This document shows, one piece after another, positions 16,005 through 27,586 of a stretch of 64,000 nt of DNA. The notes below the pieces were generated by a model that saw only the letters and a list, made by a program, of their open reading frames with translations, made no database searches and was not told where the DNA came from. The stretch lies in NCBI RefSeq assembly GCF_988243305.1, contig NZ_OZ547136.1. One strand, given 5' to 3'. A program made the position numbers and the translations under genes. Position 1 is the stretch's first letter, and each line of letters opens with the position of its first letter.

Positions 16005-19000
16005 TTACTGGAAGCAGGTCACCAGACCCGGTTTATTCATTAGCGTGATACTACAATCCTGTGCTCCAGTGCCTTCGTCCATTCCACACTGTTGAGAGGA
16101 CAAATAAGGAAAACTTGGTGAAGACGGCCATCCCAGTGAATTAAAAACAGTGTGCAACAACTCTAATTCATTGTATGTCGGTGCATTTTCTATGCTGCCA
16201 CACTGCCTTGCAATATCCCATTTACTGGCATCAATGATATGTGCAGAAGCCCAGTTTTCGTAGTTAATAATCGGTGAGGATACGGGATTAGCCCCGGACG
16301 GCAATTCTGTCGTTAACAACGGTCGATGTAGCGATTTACCATTCACCACTACAGTGTCTGCCATATGTCCCCAAAAGTGCGCCGAGGAAACATTCGGGCT
16401 GGTTGGTACCGTAAAAATAGCGTCCAGCGTGTCTGTCGCGGAAGCGTAATTAGCCAGAGTAACCGTCAGTGGCGTTTTATAACCAGGGGTATTATCCTGG
16501 CGGAGCGTAAAACTTGCCGTCCCATCCGCGCCTGTCATGCCACTAATGGTATTACCGCTTTCACTCAGCGTAACAGCCGAACCAGATAACGGCTGAACGA
16601 TGAGATCGTCCATCGCCACCACATCACCATACAACGTCGCCCCAGCGTTACGCGGCGATGCATCGCCACGTTTCAAAGTAAATTCCACATTCGGTACCGT
16701 ATTCCCGGCGCTGTCTTTCACCGTCACGGTAACGGGCATGGCTTCGCCTTTTTTCACTTTCGCCGCCTGAATAGCTGCGTCAAACGCTGTTGAGGTCAGT
16801 GTGACGCTGGAAACCGTTGCGCGCGCAGACACCAGACACGCCTGATAAGCGGCATTACCATTCAATGTCGTTGTGCCATCTTTCATATTGAGCGACTGAT
16901 TTTTACCATCTGTAGTCTTATCCTGCGCCCACCAGTAATAATAAACTGACCAGCCAGTTTCCGTCGTAAGGGTGTTATTGGGATAACGTTGATACAGTGA
17001 CTTCATATCGCTGAGCAACGGTTGCCGGGCTTCCTCACAAGGGCTGAGGCTGGCATTTGCTTTAGTGGTTGACGAAAAATAGGGCCAGTCCTCATTATTG
17101 TTATTGGTTTTATTTACCCCGGAGGTCGATGGCAGCTCCTTCCACAATTTCGGTCGTTCAAAGACGGTTCCATTTGCCGCTGTCACCGTTTCTGGCATAT
17201 GACCCCAGTAGTCGGCATCCTGGGCGTCAGGGCTGGTGACCACGGTAAATATCAGGTCCAGGTTTGACGTGATCTGCGGATCTTGTGCAAGCGAGACCGT
17301 AAACGGCGTTGCCAGGCCGGTGGTGGCGTTTTGCGTAACATTGAACGTCACTGTGCCATCACTGCCGGTAAAACCAAGCCATTTTGCCGTATCCTGAGCA
17401 AAGGAAATACGGGTTGCTGTCGGTGTGACGACATCTACAATAAGATCATCTGCCAACGATGAGGGCCTAATTCCTGAACGACTTTTCGCCTGCGCCCGCT
17501 GAAGCGTCACGCCCTCACCACTCACCAGGTTGCCATTTTGGTCTTTTACTGTCACGACTAACGGGATTGTCTCGCCCTTTTTCGCCGATGCCGAAGGTGT
17601 GCCGCCGTTACTGGCGGTTTTCGTCTCATCAAATGCTACTGAAGTCAGGGTAACGCTTGACGGCTTAGAGTGAGGCTGTGCCAGGCAGAGCATTAGAGCA
17701 ACCGGAGAGAGTGCGGATGATGCTCGTCCCGTGCTTAGGTTAAAGACCTGATAATACCAGGAGCTACCATTGGAGTTAAGTAATTCATAAATCCACCAGT
17801 TTCCTGACGCTATCGGCAACCCCAGATCTTTCGTTAACGCTCCGTTTGGGTGATCGTCATATAACCCCTGCAATTCGCTGAGGCGCGGTTGATATTCCAG
17901 CGAACAATCTGCCGTCGCTTTTTGAGTACTATATATATATGACCATGTCTCATTATTACCGTTTACCGAGCTCCCCGTAGTCGCTTCCGCTGCCAGTAAT
18001 GGGCGCTTGAAGGTCACGCCTGCCGAACTGGTAAACGTTTCCGGCATATGGCCCCAGTATTTCGCTTTTGGCGAATCCGGGCTGGTTATCACCGTGAAAA
18101 TGACATCCAGCGTGACGCTTTTCGAGGTATCGCGCATGAGTTCTGCGCTGAGCGGCGTTGACAGCCCATAACTGCTATTCTGGCTGACCTCAAACGTAGC
18201 TTTACCATCGCTCCCTGTCTTCAGAAGAGCCTGCGTCCCATCCCCATACAAGATTGACGTTACCCCAGTAGGTTCCACAGGTATGATGGTAAGATCATCT
18301 GCAGAGGCATCGTACGCAGCTTTAGCGCGGTTCAGCGCAGTCCCTCGTTTAAGGTTAAAGCTGGCACCTGGCAGTGGATTGCCTGCGCTATCTCGCACCG
18401 TAACCGTCATCGGGATAACCTCTCCCTTCTTCGCTGTTGCGCTGGGCCTGCCATCATTGCTGGCCGTTTTCGTTGCATCCTCCGCCGTTGAGGTCATTTC
18501 AATAGAAGCCGCCTCTGGATGAGGGTTTACCAGGCACAGCATTAATGCCGAGGTGGTTGAAGACGCTCTTCCACTTGATCCATTTAACAGATAAATATAT
18601 TGATCGTACCAGTTACCCGCATATGCCACCATGTCGTAAGCCCACCAGTAGCTATTTACCGGAATACCCAGATCGGTCTTTATCGCACGACTTGGGTGTT
18701 CGTCGTACAATGCCTGTAGTTCGCTTAACAGTGGTTGATAATGTACATCGCACCCGCTTTTATCGATATCCCCCTTTGTTGCCGATCTCAACACGGCCCA
18801 CTCTTCATTGTCTTCTATAAACGACTGGCCCGACGATCTTTCAGCAGAGAGTAAGGGGCGTTTGAAGGCAGTACCAGAACGCGTAGTGAACGTTTCCGCC
18901 ATATGCCCCCAGTAACTTGCCAGGGGGGTATCCGGGCTGGTTATCACGGTAAACATCACGGGTAATTTGTTGGATTCCAGGCTCGACTGATAGGCCTGAG

Positions 19001-22000
19001 CGTACACATTGGTTACCAGGCCTATAGAATCATCCTGCTTTACCGTAAACGTGGCTGTCCCGTCTGCACCTGTCACCGCATAAAGGGAGATTGATGGAGT
19101 ATCCACTCTTGCCGACGTTCCCGCAGCGTTGATTACAGAGATAGTTCTGTTCGACAACTGTACATTCTGGCGATTTGTCGATCCTTCACGTTTGAGAATA
19201 AACGGAACATTTGGTACGACATTTCCCTGCGCATCTTTTGTCACCACGCGAATCACCGCGTCGTCACCTTTTTTCCGTTTTAGTGCGCTGAGGGTTTCGT
19301 CAACTTTGACAAATTGTGTCGCATCGTTCGCTTCAACAATAATGTGGCTGGTCACCGCCACTGGGGTAGCCCGACAACTTAGCAGTCCTATACTGCTTGA
19401 CATGACCTCCGTTCCATCACCCGTTTTTAACGAAACCGCTTTAAAATTAAATGTTTGAGTGTAATAGGCAACAACCGTACTGGAGATATAGGCGCGTGAT
19501 ACAGGCCATCCCGTAACGTCATGTATTGGCACGTAACCTTCATCGGCATACAGTGACTCCAGCTCACTTTCAATCGGGACATATCCTGCACCGCAACCAT
19601 TTACAGATGTGTTGTTCGACTGGTCCGGCGAGAACAGTGACCAGCTCTCTCCATCTTCCTGAAAAGAGCTTCGACTGGTTGTAACGGAAAGCTCATCTTG
19701 CAATAACGGTCTTTTATAAATAAGCCCGCCTGCACCGGTCATCGTTTCGGCCATATGCCCCCAGAATTTTGCTTTAGGGGTATCGGGGCTGGTTATCACC
19801 GTAAAGACTACCGGAAGCATTGATTTTACGTTATTATCTGTATCCAGCATGGCGGTCAGTTCGGTTTTTAAACCCGTGGTATTGTCCTGTTTCAGTGCAA
19901 GTGTTGTCGTACCATCTGCGCCGGTAACGCCATAAATCAGTGCTGTTGTTGAGGAAAAATTACTCTGCGTGTTACCCCAGGCATCCGTCACGATGAGCGC
20001 GCCTGCTGTCACCGTTGTAGACGCATTTGCCCGATTGACGCTAAGGTTACGTTTAAGCGTAAACGCGGTATTTCCCACCGGGTTACCCTGCGAATCTTTA
20101 GTGGTCACGCGAACCACGACTTCTTCCCCTTTTTTCGCTTTGACAACATTATTCGTACTGTCAAATTTTGTGGGGTCCGCAGCCTCAAGAACGATTTGGC
20201 TAGCCTTGACGATCGGCGTCGTCTGGCAGGTAAGCAGTTCTTTTGTGGCCGATGGAATTATCGAACTGGTGCCTGAACTGAGATTGACGGCCTTGAAGTC
20301 ACGCTGTTCCAGACTACTGCTGGCTGTCGTGCTGGTAAGGTAACTTGAGGCGACGGGCCAGCCCTGAACCGTTTTCATCGCATTGCCACGGTTGGCTTCA
20401 TACAATGACTCCAGCCCGGCCTGAGAGGGAACATATTCACTACCACAACCATTAGAGGATGTGCTTGTCGCCTGAGTTTGGGTAAATTGCGCCCAGTCCT
20501 CATTATCTTCTGCAATCGCTGTTCGACCCGACGTACTGGATAACTCTTTCAACAATAATGGGCGTTTAAAGACCGTTCCATCCGCAGCCGTCACCGTTTC
20601 CGGCATATGCCCCCACATTTTCGCTTTATTGCTGTCCGGGCTGGTGACAACGGTAAAAATGGTATCGAGGGTCGCTTTTTTCGTTGTGTCTGAATAGAGC
20701 GCAGCGGTCAGCGACGTTTTTGTGCCATGGGTATCCGGGCGGGTAATAGTGAGAATTTTAGTGCCATCGCTGCCGGTCATCGCGCTGTATGCTGCGGCGG
20801 TATCATTGAGCGAAGTTTCATCCGCCAGGCCACTATTGATCACAACCGGCGCAACCAGCGCATCACCGCTACCGGCAATGTGTTTTTCGTTTGATCGTGT
20901 ATAACCATCGCCACGCTTCAGGGTAAAAGGCATATCACCCAATGGATTGCCCTGAGCATCTTTTACCGTCACCTTCACCTGTAGCGTTTCGCCTTTTTTC
21001 AGCTTCGCCGCATTTGCTGCCGCGTTCCACTGCGCCGGGTCCACCACTTCCAGCGTAATGCTGCTGGCAGGATTGTTAGCCGTCGTCAGGCAACTGACAT
21101 AAACCGCCGTGCTACCGCCAACGGTCCGCGCGCCATCGTTGAGGGCTATGGTGTAGTAATGCGGCACCTGATCCGCGGGCGAACTGCTCCAGTAGGGCTG
21201 ACGCTGCGTTGGCCAACCGTGTACCGTTTGAACGGCGTTACCGCTGTTAGCATCATAGAGCGCGTTAAGCTGGGAACGGCGTGGGAGCATATTGGCACCA
21301 CAGCCACCTTTACTGGTGCTGGAAGTGTTGGCCTGGCTAACGCGCGACCACACTTCGTTATTTTCCGTTAATGTGCCGTCCGGGCTGGACACTTCCGCAG
21401 CCAGCCGGGGTCGGGCAAAGGTTAATGCATCGACGGTAATCGTCTCATCCATATGCCCCCACATCTGCGCGCCAACCGCATCCGGACTGGTGAGCGTAGT
21501 GAAAATCACATTGTAATTAACAGTATTGGGAATATAGGAGTTTACAGGCGCAATATTCAGCGGCGTCGCTAAGCCCACACCTTGCGGTTGCTTAATTTCA
21601 ACAGTAGCAAAACCCTGCGCATCCGTAGTACCTGCATAGACTAAAGACGGTTGCGATGTTCCGTAGAGCGTGCCATTCATCTCGATTGCGCCGCGGGTTG
21701 GATCATCGAAACCCGTGGTCTGCCCCTGACGATTTTTCCCCATATCTTTCGTGATGGTGAACGCGGTATACGGCACGGGCGCATTATTCAAGGCATTAAA
21801 GGTGCGTACCGTCATGGTAATCGTTTCACCCACTTTAGCCTGCGCTCTGCTGCTTGTGGAAACATCATGATCGGTGTTCGCAGCAATCTGGGCGACCATC
21901 TCATTGCCCGAACAAGAAAGGTAGTTTTGCTTAAAGCCGGAATAGGTGTCGATGTTGCCCGTGGCCAGGTTCACCGACGCGTGCGACGTCTCTTCCACCG

Positions 22001-24047
22001 CACTAAGATACGCTTTTTGCAACGTTGGCCAGCCATATTCGGTGCCGATGACATTGGCTGGATGTGCGGCAAACAAACTGTGCAATGAGCTTTGGCTCGG
22101 AATATGACCTAAACCACACTCAGCCTGCATACTGCTATTCTGATCAAACAGCGCCCAGTCTTCGTTATTTTCCCGCACTGCTCCCAGTTCGTTGTCGGTT
22201 TCATCCGCCAGCCGTGGGCGTTTAAAGATATTATTCGCTTCAATAATGCCTAACATATGTCCCCACATCCGCGCTTTGTCGGAATCAGGGCTGGTGATCA
22301 CCGTAAAAATAACGTCTTTCTCATCCGAGGCGGTAAAATCACTGCGCATTTTCGCGGTGATGTGTGTTTTCACCCCCACGCCGCCTGGCTGGGTCAGCGT
22401 CAGAGAGGCCTCTCCGTTAGCATCAGTGATCCCTTCATAGGTATGGGCGTCAACTTTGCGAACGTTACTGCCACCATCAATTTGTACCGGGTGCGTCTCC
22501 CACGCAGCGTCAGTTTGATTCTTACGGTTAACACCGTCATCCAGATGCAGCGAAAAGTAGTAGTAAGCCAGCGGCTGATCGTTGTTCTTGCTATCGGTAA
22601 TCGTCAGGCGTAAAGAAGCCTCTTCCCCCACCTTTACTTTCATCGCTTTTATCGTCGAATCATAACTGCCCGGCGTCAGTACCAGCTTCGGTTCAACATC
22701 GGGCGCTTCTTTATCGACACAGCTCACAATAAACGTCGTATCGTCCGGTTTTTGCGCTTCGCTGCGGTTCGAAACATCCGCCGCATGGTGCTGGCCACTC
22801 ATCCCCGCCAGTGATGACCAGTAGAAATTACCCTGCATCGGCCAACCAGCCACATCCTGCACTGACGTTGGCACCACCGTCGCCAGCGCACCGAACTGAC
22901 GCATTCCGGGCAAAATGTCGCAATGTTTATCCGCGCCGCTCCAGGTAAAGGTGGACCAGGTTTCATTGTGATCGTTAACCGTACCGTTTTCATTATCGAC
23001 TTCCGCCGCCAGTTTTGGTCGACTAAAAGTGTAATCACGGGCCTTCAGCGTATCGGGCATATGACCCCACATTGTAGCCTGCGGGACATCCGGGCTGGTG
23101 AGGACGGTAAAGATCACTGCCGTTTCACTGGCCTGAGCAATACCCGCGAGGCTCGCGACCAACGGCGTTTTTACACCAAGGCCGTTGGCCTGGGTGACCG
23201 TAACCGTGGCAACACCATTCGCATCGGTAGTACCACGATATTCCGTCGCGGTGGTGGTTAATTCGGTCGTGCCCAGTTTTACCGGCGCAGTATTGTTCAC
23301 TACACCCTGGCGGTTTTCAGCATCTTTGCGTTTGATAACAAAAGGAATATTCCCCACAACATTACCGACGCAATCTTTGGTGGTGACCGTTAACGTGATA
23401 CTGCCGCCAACCGTCGTTTTCGCCGCACCGGAGGATTCGTCATAGCCCGCGGCGCTGACGGAAATAAGGTCACCCTGCGCGGGCGCAATCTTCAGCGTCA
23501 CTTTCTGATCGGCGAGCGTCAGAACACTTTCATAGGGATAGCCCGTCGAGGTGAGTAAATATAACAGCGGCATGGTCTGTTGGGGATCAGGCTGCGCCCA
23601 GGCGACCAGCGAACGCCCGGCAAGTCCCTGAGCGCAAAACGAGCGATCTGCGACTGGCTGTGGGTCCAGTAAGGTGTCCGGCGTCGCGGCATCCGCCCAA
23701 ACTAAAGATACTGTCGGTGGCGTTTGGTTTTCCCAACGTGGGGTGGAAATGATATCGCCTTCTCTGTCTTGCGGATTGGTGACGAGCAATTTAGAGACGC
23801 TAATATCCGCGCTGAATTCACTCGGTTTAGCGGTAAACGCTACCTCATGCGTCTTTGCAGGATCCAGAAAGACACTGCCCTGGTAGACGGGTATGCTGGC
23901 ACTGTCGGCGGTGGGCACGGTACCGTTAAATTCGCCGACCGTATCTGAAGAGTCTTGCCATGCAGATTCTGCCCATGACCGCCCAGGCAGCATTGCGCTT
24001 ATCAGCAATGCGCATAACACAAGGATTTTATTCAGGGTCAGGGACAT
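16005..24047 (-). CDS. ratA: RatA-like giant secreted/outer-membrane repeat protein (Big_1-like Ig domains)
   Basis: 2680-aa ORF with signal peptide [26 protein letters not shown]. Nine copies of a ~200-aa module, each with a Big_1-like segment (KKGE..v.VTVKD..GNpv.n..FtLKR) and a conserved IFTVxTSPD....WGHMxET motif. Sits with sinI/sinH between xseA and yfgJ, like the Salmonella CS54 island. Confidence 0.8.
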
Positions 24048-24119
24048 GACAGAAACTCCACCGGTTGTTAAACGGACGCTTGTCGCATCAACATATTTTG
24101 CTTAATCCGGGATTAAGCA

Positions 24120-24157
24120 AAATATGCGGAAACAGCATTCCCTTGCGGGAATGCTGC
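24120..24157 (-). terminator. putative terminator downstream of sinI
   Basis: Hairpin cagcattccc(24133-24142), loop ttgc, gggaatgctg(24147-24156), 11 bp after the sinI stop; moderately U-rich tail on the minus strand. Confidence 0.45.
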
Positions 24158-24167
24158 TGAGTACGCG

Positions 24168-25145
24168 TTATTTGTGTTTGTAAATAATGTGAAGTTTGTA
24201 CCCCTGTACCCCGTCGCCGTTGGTCGGGATGGTAAGAGCTTCTTTACCATCGCGCGCAGGGCCGTTAAGGTTGGTTCTGGCGTCTTCGTTGGTCGCAGGG
24301 ATGACCAGATTGTTATTATCGAAGCTTGAGTTAACGATACCACCCGAGGTGCCGAGCTGTTGGCTACTCCCAGAAAGTACCCAACGGAAATCATAATTGG
24401 CGGTAACGTCAGCATCGGTACCCGCATCAAACTTGCCGTTTTTGTTCTCATCCGAGTACAGTTTGGCCACGTAGGTTTTGCCAAGTTCGATTGGCGTGCT
24501 GCCGTTGATAAGGTTGATACTGGTACCATCAACAAAGATGGCGACTTTCAGGTTCTGGTTAACCACCGGCCCTGGCGCAACGTTGTCGCTGTCGCTTCCG
24601 CCGCCGCTGGCAGTGGAAATGTCATAAAGATGCAGCGCAGTCCCGACGTTTGGCGTACCGGTCTGCGTGGTTGGCGTAATTTCAATACCGATATAACGAC
24701 CACGGTCGTCATCGGTAAGAGTGTAACTGGTCACCTTCGTTGCCAGCTCTTTTGGATCGTTACCCTGAGCGTCCTTGTAGCTCATCCAGCGGATAGTATC
24801 GATAGTTTTCGCGTTATCGCCCAATACCCCAAGATCCACGTCGCCTTCGGTATCACCAATTTCCCAACTTACGGTTAATTTATCACCCGAGTAAAGACGC
24901 TTGTCCGTTTCACTGCCTGTCGGGCGAGCGCCTTTTAGATCAGAAGTCAACGTTACATGGTCGGCATCTGTCGTAGCGCTTCCCCCTTCCGAATAGAGCC
25001 ACGGAATGGTTCCCTGGAAAATATTGGTTTCGCCGCTGTCGACCCAGGCGCTTTCTTCCGCCAGCGCCACAGGTGCCACACAATAACCTGCCAGTGCCAG
25101 CGCCAATGCGATCCGGGTCAGACCGCGTCTTTTATCCTGCTTCAT
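24168..25145 (-). CDS. sinI: SinI-like secreted protein (paralogue of the SinH C-terminal passenger region)
   Basis: 325-aa ORF with signal peptide (LTRIALALALAGYCVAPVALA). C-terminus VIPATNEDARTNLNGPARDG...GDGVQGYKLHIIYKHK parallels the SinH C-terminus VIPATNREAAQTYGAQAGDGLQGYGLRVLYTKK. Confidence 0.75.
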   Translation of the reverse strand: MKQDKRRGLTRIALALALAGYCVAPVALAEESAWVDSGETNIFQGTIPWLYSEGGSATTDADHVTLTSDLKGARPTGSETDKRLYSGDKLTVSWEIGDTEGDVDLGVLGDNAKTIDTIRWMSYKDAQGNDPKELATKVTSYTLTDDDRGRYIGIEITPTTQTGTPNVGTALHLYDISTASGGGSDSDNVAPGPVVNQNLKVAIFVDGTSINLINGSTPIELGKTYVAKLYSDENKNGKFDAGTDADVTANYDFRWVLSGSSQQLGTSGGIVNSSFDNNNLVIPATNEDARTNLNGPARDGKEALTIPTNGDGVQGYKLHIIYKHK

Positions 25146-25199: not shown

Positions 25200-27377
25200 T
25201 TATTTTTTGGTATACAGCACGCGTAAACCGTATCCCTGCAAGCCATCTCCCGCTTGTGCGCCATAGGTTTGCGCTGCTTCGCGGTTAGTGGCCGGAATCA
25301 CAATGTCCTCATTGGAAGTGTTCGCCTGTGCACCCACTTCACCATTGATGCTCTTGCCGGTAAATTCCCACTTGTAGTCGTACTGCGCCATCTCTTCGTC
25401 AGTCAGTTTTTCGACCTGCTGGAAGACACCGTCTTTATTGCTGTCACGCCACAAAACAAATCGATAAGTGTTGTTGAGCGGCAGCGGTTCTTTATCTTTA
25501 CCTATCAGGTTGCTGGGTTTAGCTGCCCCCACACGATAGATAAATGCATTTAGCCCACCAATTTCTGCCCCGAGGAAAGTGACATCCACATAGTTACTGT
25601 CGTCGTAGGGCGCAGCTTTTGCTTTCCAGCGATAGGTGCCGGGTAAGGTACTGGAGAGGGTGACAGTGCCCTTTTCTTTATCTTGTTTAGCGATAAAAAC
25701 GCAGGGGTTGTCGGTCGAGCAAGGCTTGTTGGTTAACGTCACTCGTTTGTCCTGCGCGTCGTAAAGCTGCGGCGTGAGGTTATCTTCCGGCAGCGCATCG
25801 CCATTGCGGTCGGTGTTATCGCCAAAGCTGTCGGTTACATCGAGATCCATCACCACACCATCAACGCCATCTGCCTGAGCGCTGGCTTCGTGGCTGTGGT
25901 TGTTCTCTTCCGGCACGTTCGCGATGTTATTAACAATCAACTCTATTTTACGGTCCTGCTGAACGGTGATTTCCACCACGCCAGAGTTCTGTCGGTTGCC
26001 CTTTTCATCTTCCAGTGCCAGACGTACTCGCCAGGTATTGAGTTTTTCTTGTTCGGCTTTGTCAGAGCTGTACTGCCAGGCGGGCAGCACCAGGTTCCAG
26101 TGGTTATTGTTACCCTCTGTCAGGGTATTCTCTTTGATAACCGGCATAACCAACGTGCGGGCAGCATTGTTTTTCGCCTGCCATGACGCAGCGACAATTT
26201 TGTAGTGGTGGTTGATAAGCGCGTTAATGGTCCACTTACATTTTTCCAGCCCGACGGCCGCTTCGGGAGTGTCCTTAATGACGCACTCAGGGTGCTCGTT
26301 GGTGGCATCCGCTTTTAACCACAGGGTGACATCAAGCGGATCTTTTTCTTTGTATTCCAGAACAATAAAGTTATTACGCTCAACAAAATCATGACGACTG
26401 CCCATCAACGAGTGAGCCGCTTTCACTTTATCGCTATCCAATTGATCTTTTAGCGGAACGCCGAACTGATAATTAAGAGTGGCATTAATGCTGACATCGC
26501 TGTTATCTCCGGTCCCCGCTTTATAGTCCGCCCCAACGGTTAGTAATGGCACCGGTTGATAATTCAGTCCAAGTGTTACCGCGTAGGGATCTTTCTCCAA
26601 ATTATCCGTACCAAAAAGGGCGACTTCATCGCCGTAATATTGCTCGAAGACAACTTTGCCCCCCAGTTGCGGATAAGAAGGTAACCAGGCTTCGGCACGA
26701 ATATCCCAGCCGCGCGCAGGGCGTTCTTCATAAAAGCCGAAATCTTCAGAGTCTTTCCAGTCAGAAAGCGGATGATAATAGTTGCCAGAGAATTTTAAAT
26801 AATCAGTCCACGCTTCGCCGCCTAAACCTAAACGGCGATGTCCTCGGGTAAAATCATAATCATAAAATACATTTCCACCCAATAACCATTCATTAAAATT
26901 ATGTCTTACCCCAAGACCAATATTCCCGATTGTACGATCTTCTTTTCGTTGCGCAGAAAATTGACTGAAATAAACAGTGGTTTGATTATCGTACCAGGGA
27001 ACAAAATAATCGATGGAACTGCCATCCAGATCGCCGCCCTGGCCAATGGAGAGGTTCGAACGGACCTTACCGTAGGGAGAGAGAGTGTCTTCAATATAAG
27101 ATTGTGCGGTTGAGATGATTTGACTTTGCAGATAGCTTCTGGCCTGAGATTCCAGCGCCTCAGGGGTCAAGTTTTCAAACCCTTGCGTGGCGGAGTTGAT
27201 GACGTAATCGGCTCCGCGCTCTTTCAGCGATTTACCCTTGTTGGTTTGTTCATCCCGCTGTGCTGCCTGGCTACCTAAATCAGGTAACGATTCGTTTTGC
27301 TTAACATTTATCTCTGGTGCCGCGAAAGCAGCACCAGAGATAAATGTTAGAATAATACAGCGTTTCCATCGCAGCAT
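25200..27377 (-). CDS. sinH: SinH-like intimin/invasin-family inverse autotransporter
   Basis: Track ORF 25200..27407 starts at a TTG. The ATG at 27377 (MLRWKRCIILTFISGAAFAAP, signal peptide) has an AGGGAAAG SD-like sequence upstream. The N-terminal half has the intimin/invasin beta-barrel signature region (GLGVRHNF...NVFYDYDF...GGEAWTDYLKFSGNYYHPLS...LNYQPVPLLTVGADYK), followed by Ig-like passenger domains. Confidence 0.8.
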   Translation of the reverse strand: MLRWKRCIILTFISGAAFAAPEINVKQNESLPDLGSQAAQRDEQTNKGKSLKERGADYVINSATQGFENLTPEALESQARSYLQSQIISTAQSYIEDTLSPYGKVRSNLSIGQGGDLDGSSIDYFVPWYDNQTTVYFSQFSAQRKEDRTIGNIGLGVRHNFNEWLLGGNVFYDYDFTRGHRRLGLGGEAWTDYLKFSGNYYHPLSDWKDSEDFGFYEERPARGWDIRAEAWLPSYPQLGGKVVFEQYYGDEVALFGTDNLEKDPYAVTLGLNYQPVPLLTVGADYKAGTGDNSDVSINATLNYQFGVPLKDQLDSDKVKAAHSLMGSRHDFVERNNFIVLEYKEKDPLDVTLWLKADATNEHPECVIKDTPEAAVGLEKCKWTINALINHHYKIVAASWQAKNNAARTLVMPVIKENTLTEGNNNHWNLVLPAWQYSSDKAEQEKLNTWRVRLALEDEKGNRQNSGVVEITVQQDRKIELIVNNIANVPEENNHSHEASAQADGVDGVVMDLDVTDSFGDNTDRNGDALPEDNLTPQLYDAQDKRVTLTNKPCSTDNPCVFIAKQDKEKGTVTLSSTLPGTYRWKAKAAPYDDSNYVDVTFLGAEIGGLNAFIYRVGAAKPSNLIGKDKEPLPLNNTYRFVLWRDSNKDGVFQQVEKLTDEEMAQYDYKWEFTGKSINGEVGAQANTSNEDIVIPATNREAAQTYGAQAGDGLQGYGLRVLYTKK

Positions 27378-27586
27378 GCACTTTCCCTGTGACAATGATA
27401 CAGTCAAAAATAAGCTTTAATATTGTATCCCTGATTATTCAGAAAGGCATGTCATAAAGAATAAATATATTCTTAATTATTTAAATTAGTGATTTCACTC
27501 AATTACATTAGTTATTCCACTAATAACAGATTGTTTTACCATTCACATATTAAATATAAATGATAAAACAATATATTCACATGATA

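Follow-up and report, generated by a model that had tools for sequence, protein, structure and literature searches.

The gene sinI, on the minus strand of the 64,000-nucleotide stretch of DNA analyzed here (contig NZ_OZ547136.1 of NCBI RefSeq assembly GCF_988243305.1, hereafter the window), encodes a 325-residue protein that is a mosaic of a leader, a short N-terminal peptide shared with the neighboring protein RatA, an A9/ZirU-like immunoglobulin (Ig) domain, a linker, and a C-terminal domain like the tip of SinH, the inverse autotransporter encoded next to it. An earlier note on this DNA had suggested that SinI, SinH, and RatA are a family of secreted modules derived from one Ig-like passenger domain. 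Such a common source is not borne out, since SinH and SinI share their last ~120-130 residues only and the N-terminal half of SinI appears to belong to another class of Ig domain.

The 325-residue open reading frame (ORF) is sinI. Its product scores 337.2 bits against the NCBIfam model NF040711 (partner_SinI, cut-off 165) over residues 7-322, which places it within the family, and the RefSeq label in Escherichia coli 042 is "SinI family autotransporter-associated protein." The gene lies directly downstream of sinH across a gap of 54 nucleotides, in the same order as in E. coli 042, and stands between sinH and ratA in an E. coli island that is flanked by xseA and yfgJ/der. The window is E. coli chromosomal DNA, whose 3.5 kb around sinI are 99.4-100% identical to many complete E. 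coli genomes, strain 042 among them, and in the literature the locus is regarded as equivalent to a part of the CS54 island of Salmonella. The ORF and every peptide string quoted in the earlier note were found in the sequence.

The C-terminal domain of SinI is a true paralog of the distal domain of SinH. In BLASTP, SinI 218-325 aligns with SinH 641-735 at 36% identity and 50% positives (E 4e-13), and the Smith-Waterman score of this block, 147, was reached by none of 500 shuffled sequences (mean 41.8, standard deviation 6.0, maximum 70; z 17.6). Profiles built from 19 ortholog sets align SinI 197-325 with SinH 617-735 in hhalign (probability 99.5%, E 4.4e-23), and the curated NCBIfam models for SinI and SinH cross-match both ways, the SinI model matching SinH 629-732 at E 4e-21. 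The C-terminal block that the earlier note had reported therefore stands well above shuffled controls, and BLASTP, shuffling, and hhalign bear out its description of SinI as a stand-alone protein with a C-terminal domain paralogous to that of SinH. The "central regions" that it had aligned in addition (KLYSDENKNGKFDAG / VLWRDSNKDGVFQQ) are present as strings, but they are no separate similarity, lying inside the high-scoring segment pair of the C-terminal block (SinI 228-242, SinH 651-664). A search for a second region of likeness between the two proteins found none, with SinI 30-200 against SinH 361-735 giving z -0.7 and hhalign reporting no match beyond the C-terminal block. Within the core clade the SinH and SinI C-terminal domains, 36-39% identical, fall into separate clades, and the duplication is therefore old. 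On the same grounds we rejected concerted evolution of the two domains there; the pattern in the Buttiauxella/Lelliottia clade is ambiguous.

That SinI resembles SinH is in itself already known. Heinz 2016 (PMC4943183), in a statement that credits Kingsley 2003, describes SinI as lacking a barrel and resembling the SinH Ig domains, and the similarity, published in 2003 and 2016, is mirrored in the name of the NCBI curated family. Xing 2023 (PMC9937491) modeled SinH as a barrel followed by three Ig-like domains, the third of which (residues 602-724 in the 725-residue numbering, called the "receptor-binding domain" or SinH-3) was used as a protective antigen; it is to this domain that the C-terminal domain of SinI is paralogous. 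Papers and RefSeq count SinH from an ATG 10 codons after the TTG of the longest ORF (window 27377-27407), so that published residue numbers are 10 lower than those used here. Among its best 150 matches the SinI C-terminal domain was found solely in SinH- and SinI-type proteins, and the domain of neither protein could be assigned to a Pfam family or paired with a closely related solved structure; a weak DUF5057 match occurs in both. Residues 232-240 of SinI form a loop, D-x-N-x-N-G-x-x-D, that resembles a calcium site, and a loop of the form D-x-N-x-[ND]-G-x-x-[DQ] is found in both proteins, at window positions 24450-24476 in SinI and 25422-25448 (residues 654-662) in SinH. One database protein (P0161) has a SinH passenger joined straight to a SinI-type C-terminal domain.

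The N-terminal half of SinI (residues 30-178) appears from its profile matches to be an A9/SCAB-type, ZirU-like Ig domain, and it shows no relation to SinH. The Pfam model IG_AIR9 (PF23197) scores 18.7 bits on SinI, below its gathering threshold of 27.5, and such sub-threshold matches to IG_AIR9/SCAB-Ig occur in SinI and 11 of 40 family members. The NCBIfam model ZirU_fam (NF040485) matches SinI 69-210 at E 1.3e-7, yet with 32 bits against a cut-off of 100, and we therefore rejected SinI as a member of the ZirU family, with which it shares the type of domain. When a SinI profile was searched against 1.84 billion representative proteins, 461 were returned at E<=0.001, many of them large proteins in which the region matching profile positions ~90-175 is repeated, up to 27 times in tandem in a single protein. 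The large proteins that were checked match IG_AIR9 at E 1e-45 to 1e-153 and give strong SCAB-Ig and ZirU_fam matches too. SinI is thus like the A9 (AIR9)/SCAB-Ig giant surface proteins in one segment, but it holds a single divergent copy, fused to the N-terminal peptide and to a family-specific C-terminal domain.

A scan for orthologs at one genome per species yielded 23 loci in Escherichia, Citrobacter, Pseudocitrobacter, Superficieibacter, Leminorella, Lelliottia, Buttiauxella, and one further Enterobacteriaceae genome. Directly after the leader, nearly all SinI and RatA orthologs from ~20 species carry the motif W-x5-9-[ST]-x2-3-[IFVL]-[QNEKS]-G-[TS]-x-P, which probably begins an N-terminal domain common to the two proteins. 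In most lineages the motif takes the form [NA]-L-K-[SG]-G-x-W-Q-x4-5-[ST]-T-[GD]-x-I-[QN]-G-T-x-P, and in the lineage of the window it reads A/E-x-S/A-A-W-...-T-x-E/I-F-[QN]-G-T-x-P. The earlier note had remarked that the N-terminus of SinI echoes that of RatA, and this echo, weak in the window pair, proves real across orthologs. For the window proteins, BLASTP with signal peptides included gives a marginal E of 0.016, SinI 29-60 against RatA 1-200 gives z 5.7 (0 of 1000 shuffles), and against full RatA 1 of 500 shuffles reaches the score. An ungapped comparison of the 23-residue motif between SinI and RatA of the same locus, made for ~20 loci across species, gives scores of 24-73, whereas shuffled motifs score -15 +/- 10. 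The two sets of N-termini align in hhalign at E 2.7e-6 with the signal peptide, and the mature sequences (SinI 30-215, RatA 26-225) align over 175 collinear columns at E 8.9e-5 and a probability of 60%, with D-T/R-E-G-D, a Trp strand, and T-x-T-G-x-P-N as landmarks.

A strict form of the motif has exactly 2 matches in the six-frame translation of the window, the N-termini of SinI and RatA, and 39 in the 614 ORFs of related loci, all at residues 29-53 of SinI or RatA orthologs; the pattern was built from these same sequences, so the counts measure specificity only. All 23 SinI proteins compared have W34, T40, G45, P48, and W49, two of which, G45 and P48, still belong to the 15 invariant columns when the comparison takes in 40 SinI-family proteins with identities as low as 25%, and very distant SinI members keep T-x-T/G-x-I-x-G-x-x-P right after the leader. 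We considered recent gene conversion as the source of the likeness and rejected it, as third-codon identity in the shared residues is ~36%, and the similarity of the motif has therefore been kept by selection at the level of the peptide. The type of motif variant also agrees between SinI and RatA across lineages.

Homology of the whole N-terminal domains of SinI and RatA is likely from these alignments, though not proven. The resemblance of SinI to RatA is confined to the N-terminal half and does not extend to the SinH-like C-terminal domain. In Buttiauxella, Lelliottia, and one metagenomic locus, the third gene encodes a mini-RatA of 360-420 residues, and these short proteins act as a bridge, with the RatA N-domain matching the third protein of locus L022 at z 20, that protein matching the N-domain of Lelliottia SinI at z 6.8, and mini-RatA N-domains matching SinI N-domains at z 15-24. 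A hidden Markov model of SinI-type N-domains gives marginal matches to RatA N-termini (E 0.001-0.1), always in register and above all reversed decoys. The homolog search with RatA 1-215 returned fragments only. The mini-RatA proteins (L020:1758-2864, L022:11429-12691, L023:11304-12470, and L027:3082-4164; also P0237) carry the common N-terminal motif and N-domain together with a Big_2-like domain, and their end resembles a C-type lectin (WYDAKxWCENQGYRLP). In Heinz 2016 (PMC4943183) the N-terminal part of Rat-like proteins is described as "highly divergent," with no word of a motif in common. The motif common to SinI and RatA, and its inheritance as a block with sinI that is described below, appear to be unreported.

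An AlphaFold2 (AF2) model of SinI, built from a 40-sequence alignment, has two beta-sandwich domains, with a predicted local distance difference test score (pLDDT) of 85.7 and a predicted template modeling score (pTM) of 0.73. The leader (residues 1-29) is disordered at pLDDT <50, the motif (residues 30-50) is modeled at 76-91, and the C-terminal domain, predicted as a beta-sandwich with one helix, at 89-97. Confidence is lower around residues ~181-190 and dips to 66 in the linker between the domains, in which GGG and GPV are invariant in the ortholog alignment. In the AF2 model of RatA, residues 21-39 lie below pLDDT 50 and the prediction is confident from residue 40 on. A Foldseek search of the SinI model against the PDB gave generic two-Ig matches only, none at E<=1e-3; the fold-search matches were generic tandem Ig/FN3 proteins, plus PDE12 and SCAB1. 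No solved structure of SinI or of the SinH passenger was found by sequence or profile, where only the SinH barrel matches invasin/intimin structures (4e1t at E 1.4e-73, 4e1s at E 7.5e-65). Comparison of the N-terminal with the C-terminal half of SinI revealed no internal repeat (z -0.1).

The SinI leader, as read from the sequence, has a basic n-region, a hydrophobic core, and an A-x-A site. It is thus of the Sec type. With neither IAT_beta nor any other barrel family in Pfam, SinI is not itself an inverse autotransporter (type Ve). It was also rejected as a lipoprotein, since its L-A-G-Y-C has Tyr at -1 before C22 and the A-x-A site, of the signal peptidase I kind, follows 7 residues on, and as a TpsA exoprotein of two-partner secretion (TPS), since the Pfam scan found no TPS domain and the NPNL/NPNGI motifs are absent from the sequence. 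The leader (K/R-rich start, ALALALAGY, A-x-A) is among the best-kept parts of the family, even in members 25-29% identical overall. Its conservation, together with that of the sinH-sinI junction, could reflect translational coupling or a special need in targeting.

The ratio of nonsynonymous to synonymous substitution rates (dN/dS) in sinI is 0.05-0.30, indicating purifying selection, with the N-domain least constrained, and sinI is, to judge from its conservation, a functional gene. Between lineages within Escherichia, the SinH barrel and domains 1-2 are 86-98% identical, SinH domain 3 ~74%, the RatA N-domain ~59%, and SinI 33-48%. Between E. coli (L003) and E. albertii (L016), DNA identity is 98% as far as codon ~18 of sinI, the sinH-sinI junction included; it drops to 25-60% over the remainder of sinI, the spacer, and the part of ratA that encodes the leader and motif, and returns to 95-98% just past this motif. 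Mature SinI and the RatA leader plus motif therefore move as one cassette, and within each cassette the motif variants match. The variable stretch is sharply bounded, at L003:10295-11602 against L016, which corresponds to window ~23915-25100. A second discontinuity is found between the window and strain 536 (L028), where the synonymous substitution rate (dS) is ~0.45-0.48 in the sinH barrel and domains 1-2 and 0.06-0.19 from domain 3 through ratA; this mosaic pattern in dS indicates recombination inside sinH. The coordinates of the genes and of the parts of their products are collected in the table.

Table. Positions of sinI, its neighbors, and the parts of their products in the window.
Feature	Positions	Strand	Extent	Remarks
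sinI coding sequence	24168..25145	minus	325 aa + stop	ATG start; from ORF list and translation
SinI signal peptide	25059..25145	minus	aa 1-29	MKQDKRRGLTRIALALALAGYCVAPVALA; predicted cleavage ALA|EE
SinI mature N-terminal motif	24996..25058	minus	aa 30-50	EESAWVDSGETNIFQGTIPWL
SinI A9/SCAB-type Ig-like domain core	24612..24920	minus	aa ~76-178	
SinI Gly/Asp/Ser-rich linker	24558..24611	minus	aa 179-196	ASGGGSDSDNVAPGPVVN
SinI C-terminal domain	24171..24557	minus	aa 197-325	paralog of SinH distal domain
sinH	25200..27407	minus	735 aa (longest ORF)	TTG start at 27407; RefSeq-style ATG at 27377 gives 725 aa
SinH third, distal Ig-like domain	25203..25559	minus	aa 617-735 of the 735-aa ORF	
sinI-ratA spacer	24048..24167	minus		two hairpins (GCATTCCC-GCAA-GGGAATGC; TATTTTGCTTAATCC-CGG-ATTAAGCAAAATA), read from sequence
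ratA-like gene	16005..24047	minus	2680 aa	9 BIg21 + InvE_AD repeats, no barrel
RatA mature N-terminal motif	23913..23969	minus	aa 27-45	
RatA N-terminal domain	23448..23969	minus	aa 27-200	probably homologous to SinI N-terminal half

Several known systems bear on what such a mosaic protein may do. SinI of the Salmonella CS54 island belongs to the same NF040711 family, sits after sinH and before ratA, and likewise has no barrel and a similarity to the SinH Ig domains, but the window SinI is only ~45-47% identical to it, and its motif, NLKSGQWQ...TIQGT, differs from the AEESAW...IFQGT of the window SinI, which is the form matched by the window RatA. The ZirT-ZirS/ZirU system has the same gene layout, barrel-less partners with signal peptides, and Ig similarity between partners and transporter. 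In that system, according to Heinz 2016 (PMC4943183), ZirS and ZirU relate to ZirT as SinI does to SinH and pass out through ZirT, with Prehna 2012 as the source cited there for the secretion of ZirU. The same paper hypothesizes that SinH-type proteins translocate SinI- and Rat-like substrates and calls the export of barrel-less partners a Gordian knot, and Goh 2019 (PMC6714894) draws the same Zir analogy for E. coli IatB (= SinH). Secretion of ZirS is Sec- and ZirT-dependent, and a TPS domain is absent (Gal-Mor 2008, PMC2270342). The dependence on ZirT was shown by experiment, whereas that of SinI on SinH is argued by analogy. Classical two-partner secretion (FhaC/FHA) likewise employs a separate outer-membrane transporter and exoprotein, and the mature N-terminus of that exoprotein bears a conserved element, a possible analog of the motif described here, but the barrel of SinH is of the intimin/invasin type rather than Omp85/POTRA, and SinI has neither TPS domain nor NPNL/NPNGI. 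Intimin and invasin share with SinH a homologous barrel and a passenger of Ig-like domains, and differ in having no co-encoded copy of the tip domain. In distant metagenomic systems, the last domain of an inverse autotransporter matches the last domain of 1-2 co-encoded small proteins.

We give somewhat better than even credence to a model in which SinI is a partner of SinH that is exported by Sec, relies on SinH for its display, and is located with the SinH tip and RatA. SinI would cross the inner membrane via Sec, would require SinH to reach, or to be held at, the cell surface, and would there join the SinH tip and RatA in a multi-protein adhesin of the Ig type, with the N-terminal peptide of SinI and RatA as the best candidate for an element recognized by a common partner. 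ZirS and ZirU reportedly bind each other and the extracellular domain of ZirT, a result ascribed to Prehna et al. in 2012. In the ~20 loci whose flanking DNA extends far enough (in Escherichia, Citrobacter, Pseudocitrobacter, Superficieibacter, Leminorella, and one more Enterobacteriaceae genome) the order sinH-sinI-ratA is conserved, and this order, the purifying selection on sinI, and the link of SinI to the experimentally secreted Zir family all support the model. The first half of the RatA motif, moreover, is conserved yet not confidently folded, as would be expected of a binding peptide. The suggestion in the earlier note that the three proteins act together at the cell surface fits the published hypothesis, the ZirT-ZirS/ZirU precedent, and the strict synteny.

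If the peptide is indeed recognized, it could be an address label of inverse-autotransporter two-partner systems, a functional counterpart of the TPS domain that is read, by SinH or mutually between SinI and RatA, to bring about export or tethering, although we hold this more specific proposal to be tentative and rather doubtful. The presence of the motif on both barrel-less neighbors, its retention at the protein level, the matched variants, and the exchange as a single cassette are all consistent with it.

A number of observations weigh against a SinH-dependent surface partner. The searchable literature contains no experiment that shows SinI leaving the periplasm or binding SinH or RatA, and IatB forms biofilm without the downstream gene (Goh 2019, PMC6714894). 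The SinI motif, modeled at pLDDT 76-91, may simply be a structural part of its domain, and the fold search gave no confirmation of an A9-like N-domain in RatA. SinH domain 3 does not co-vary with the type of SinI, and E. albertii L016 combines the SinH domain 3 of one lineage with the SinI of another. The matching of motif variants by lineage rests on essentially one or two evolutionary events, and physical linkage could explain it because the 3' end of sinI lies 120 bp from the 5' end of ratA.

On the other hand, SinI could be a secreted decoy, a putative soluble copy of the SinH receptor-binding domain that takes the host ligand, thereby tuning adhesion, or absorbs antibodies directed at the tip. 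Paralogy of the SinI C-terminal domain to SinH domain 3, which is treated as both receptor-binding domain and protective antigen, would suit such a role, as would the finding that, within the locus, divergence between lineages is greatest in SinH domain 3, SinI, and the RatA N-domain, as would be expected of exposed parts under immune selection. ZirTS, as the title and abstract of Gal-Mor 2008 (PMC2270342) present it, has a modulating role and is not a simple adhesin. With no more than 36-39% identity between the domains, however, it is by no means certain that they have a ligand or epitopes in common, and a decoy leaves the conserved N-terminal half of SinI and the motif shared with RatA unexplained. 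We consider this alternative unlikely.

In another scenario, to which we likewise assign a low probability, SinI would be a periplasmic assembly factor whose Ig domains chaperone the SinH passenger, RatA, or both before export. Proteins with Ig folds are often periplasmic chaperones (Heinz 2016, PMC4943183), and a protein with one domain like each of its neighbors would suit templating or strand complementation. The related ZirS, however, is extracellular (Gal-Mor 2008, PMC2270342), and ZirU is reportedly secreted (Heinz 2016, PMC4943183, citing Prehna 2012). SinI also evolves fast between lineages, at ~45% identity where SinH has 87%, which is more in keeping with an exposed protein than with a housekeeping chaperone, and IatB is active in the biofilm assay without the downstream gene (Goh 2019, PMC6714894).

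The origin of the SinH C-terminus, SinI, and the RatA N-terminus from one Ig-like passenger domain, as the earlier note had it, we regard as improbable. Every one of these parts is a beta-sandwich domain, and the paralogy of the SinH and SinI C-terminal domains is solid, but the N-terminal half of SinI is unlike any part of the SinH passenger (z -0.7, with no second hhalign match), the two halves of SinI are unlike each other (z -0.1), and RatA matches the N-terminal half of SinI only. The A9/SCAB/ZirU class of that half, in addition, occurs as tandem repeats in unrelated giant proteins. That sinI is an inert by-product, a decaying partial duplicate of the 3' end of sinH without function, might be suggested by the decay that some strains show at the locus (a frameshift in sinH, stop codons in ratA, a deletion fusing sinH and sinI), but it is effectively refuted by an intact ORF and an architecture conserved in all species examined, the low dN/dS, the 15 columns that stay invariant across 40 proteins with identities as low as 25%, and the separate, old clades of the SinH and SinI C-terminal domains.

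Returning to the locus itself, the minus-strand gene order in the window is guaA, guaB, xseA, the RatA-like gene, sinI, sinH, a zinc-ribbon gene, der, and bamB. The product of sinH scores 1483 bits against the NCBIfam model inverse_SinH and matches Pfam IAT_beta at residues 73-346 (E 7e-108). The RatA-like product scores 5385 bits against the NCBIfam model PRK15316 RatA-like and contains nine Pfam BIg21 and nine InvE_AD matches; this 2680-residue protein is named "adhesion domain-containing protein." According to a 2025 review, sinH and sinI are co-transcribed. The 120-nucleotide spacer between sinI and ratA contains one GC-rich hairpin followed by a weak T tract and one long AT-rich hairpin, neither of which was called by a scan for consensus terminators; these hairpins may act as a partial terminator that holds ratA expression under the level of sinH-sinI.

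Among 5,426 complete E. coli genomes, sinI of the window type is present in 938, mostly at 95-99% identity and with uropathogenic E. coli 536 included, and a second type, ~45% identical in protein, in 47; ~800 more E. coli genomes show only a partial match to the 3.5-kb sinH-sinI query at 80-90% identity. Decay of the locus was seen in L029 (E. coli MB53), L030 (O145:H28 RM12581), and L031 (GDSC2227PM), in the form of an internal stop in ratA, a frameshift in sinH, and a deletion that fuses a truncated sinH to a truncated sinI. A 3.1-kb contig assigned to a "Collinsella MAG" (metagenome-assembled genome; L002, JAIJJM010000381.1) carries sinI and the 5' end of ratA at 99% identity to the window and is almost certainly a mis-binned Enterobacteriaceae contig. 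One further "SinI" (P0125) has an excess of Ile, Val, Met, and Cys where its relatives have Thr, Ala, Ser, and Arg, a composition that suggests a sequencing or translation artifact, and it was excluded from the alignments.

SinH is under study as a vaccine antigen against extraintestinal pathogenic E. coli, and its protective part, SinH-3, is the very domain that is duplicated in SinI. About one-sixth of complete E. coli genomes (938/5,426) carry sinI of this type. A second copy of the domain, encoded by a gene of its own, might serve as a partner, compete, or soak up antibodies. What the present analysis adds to the published similarity, namely, the description of SinI as a mosaic, the conserved N-terminal peptide that it shares with RatA, and the inheritance of this peptide as a block with sinI, amounts to modest but testable leads, and the peptide in particular offers a small, specific, and mutable target for asking how barrel-less partners such as SinI, the Rat proteins, and ZirS/ZirU exit the cell through, or together with, inverse autotransporters.

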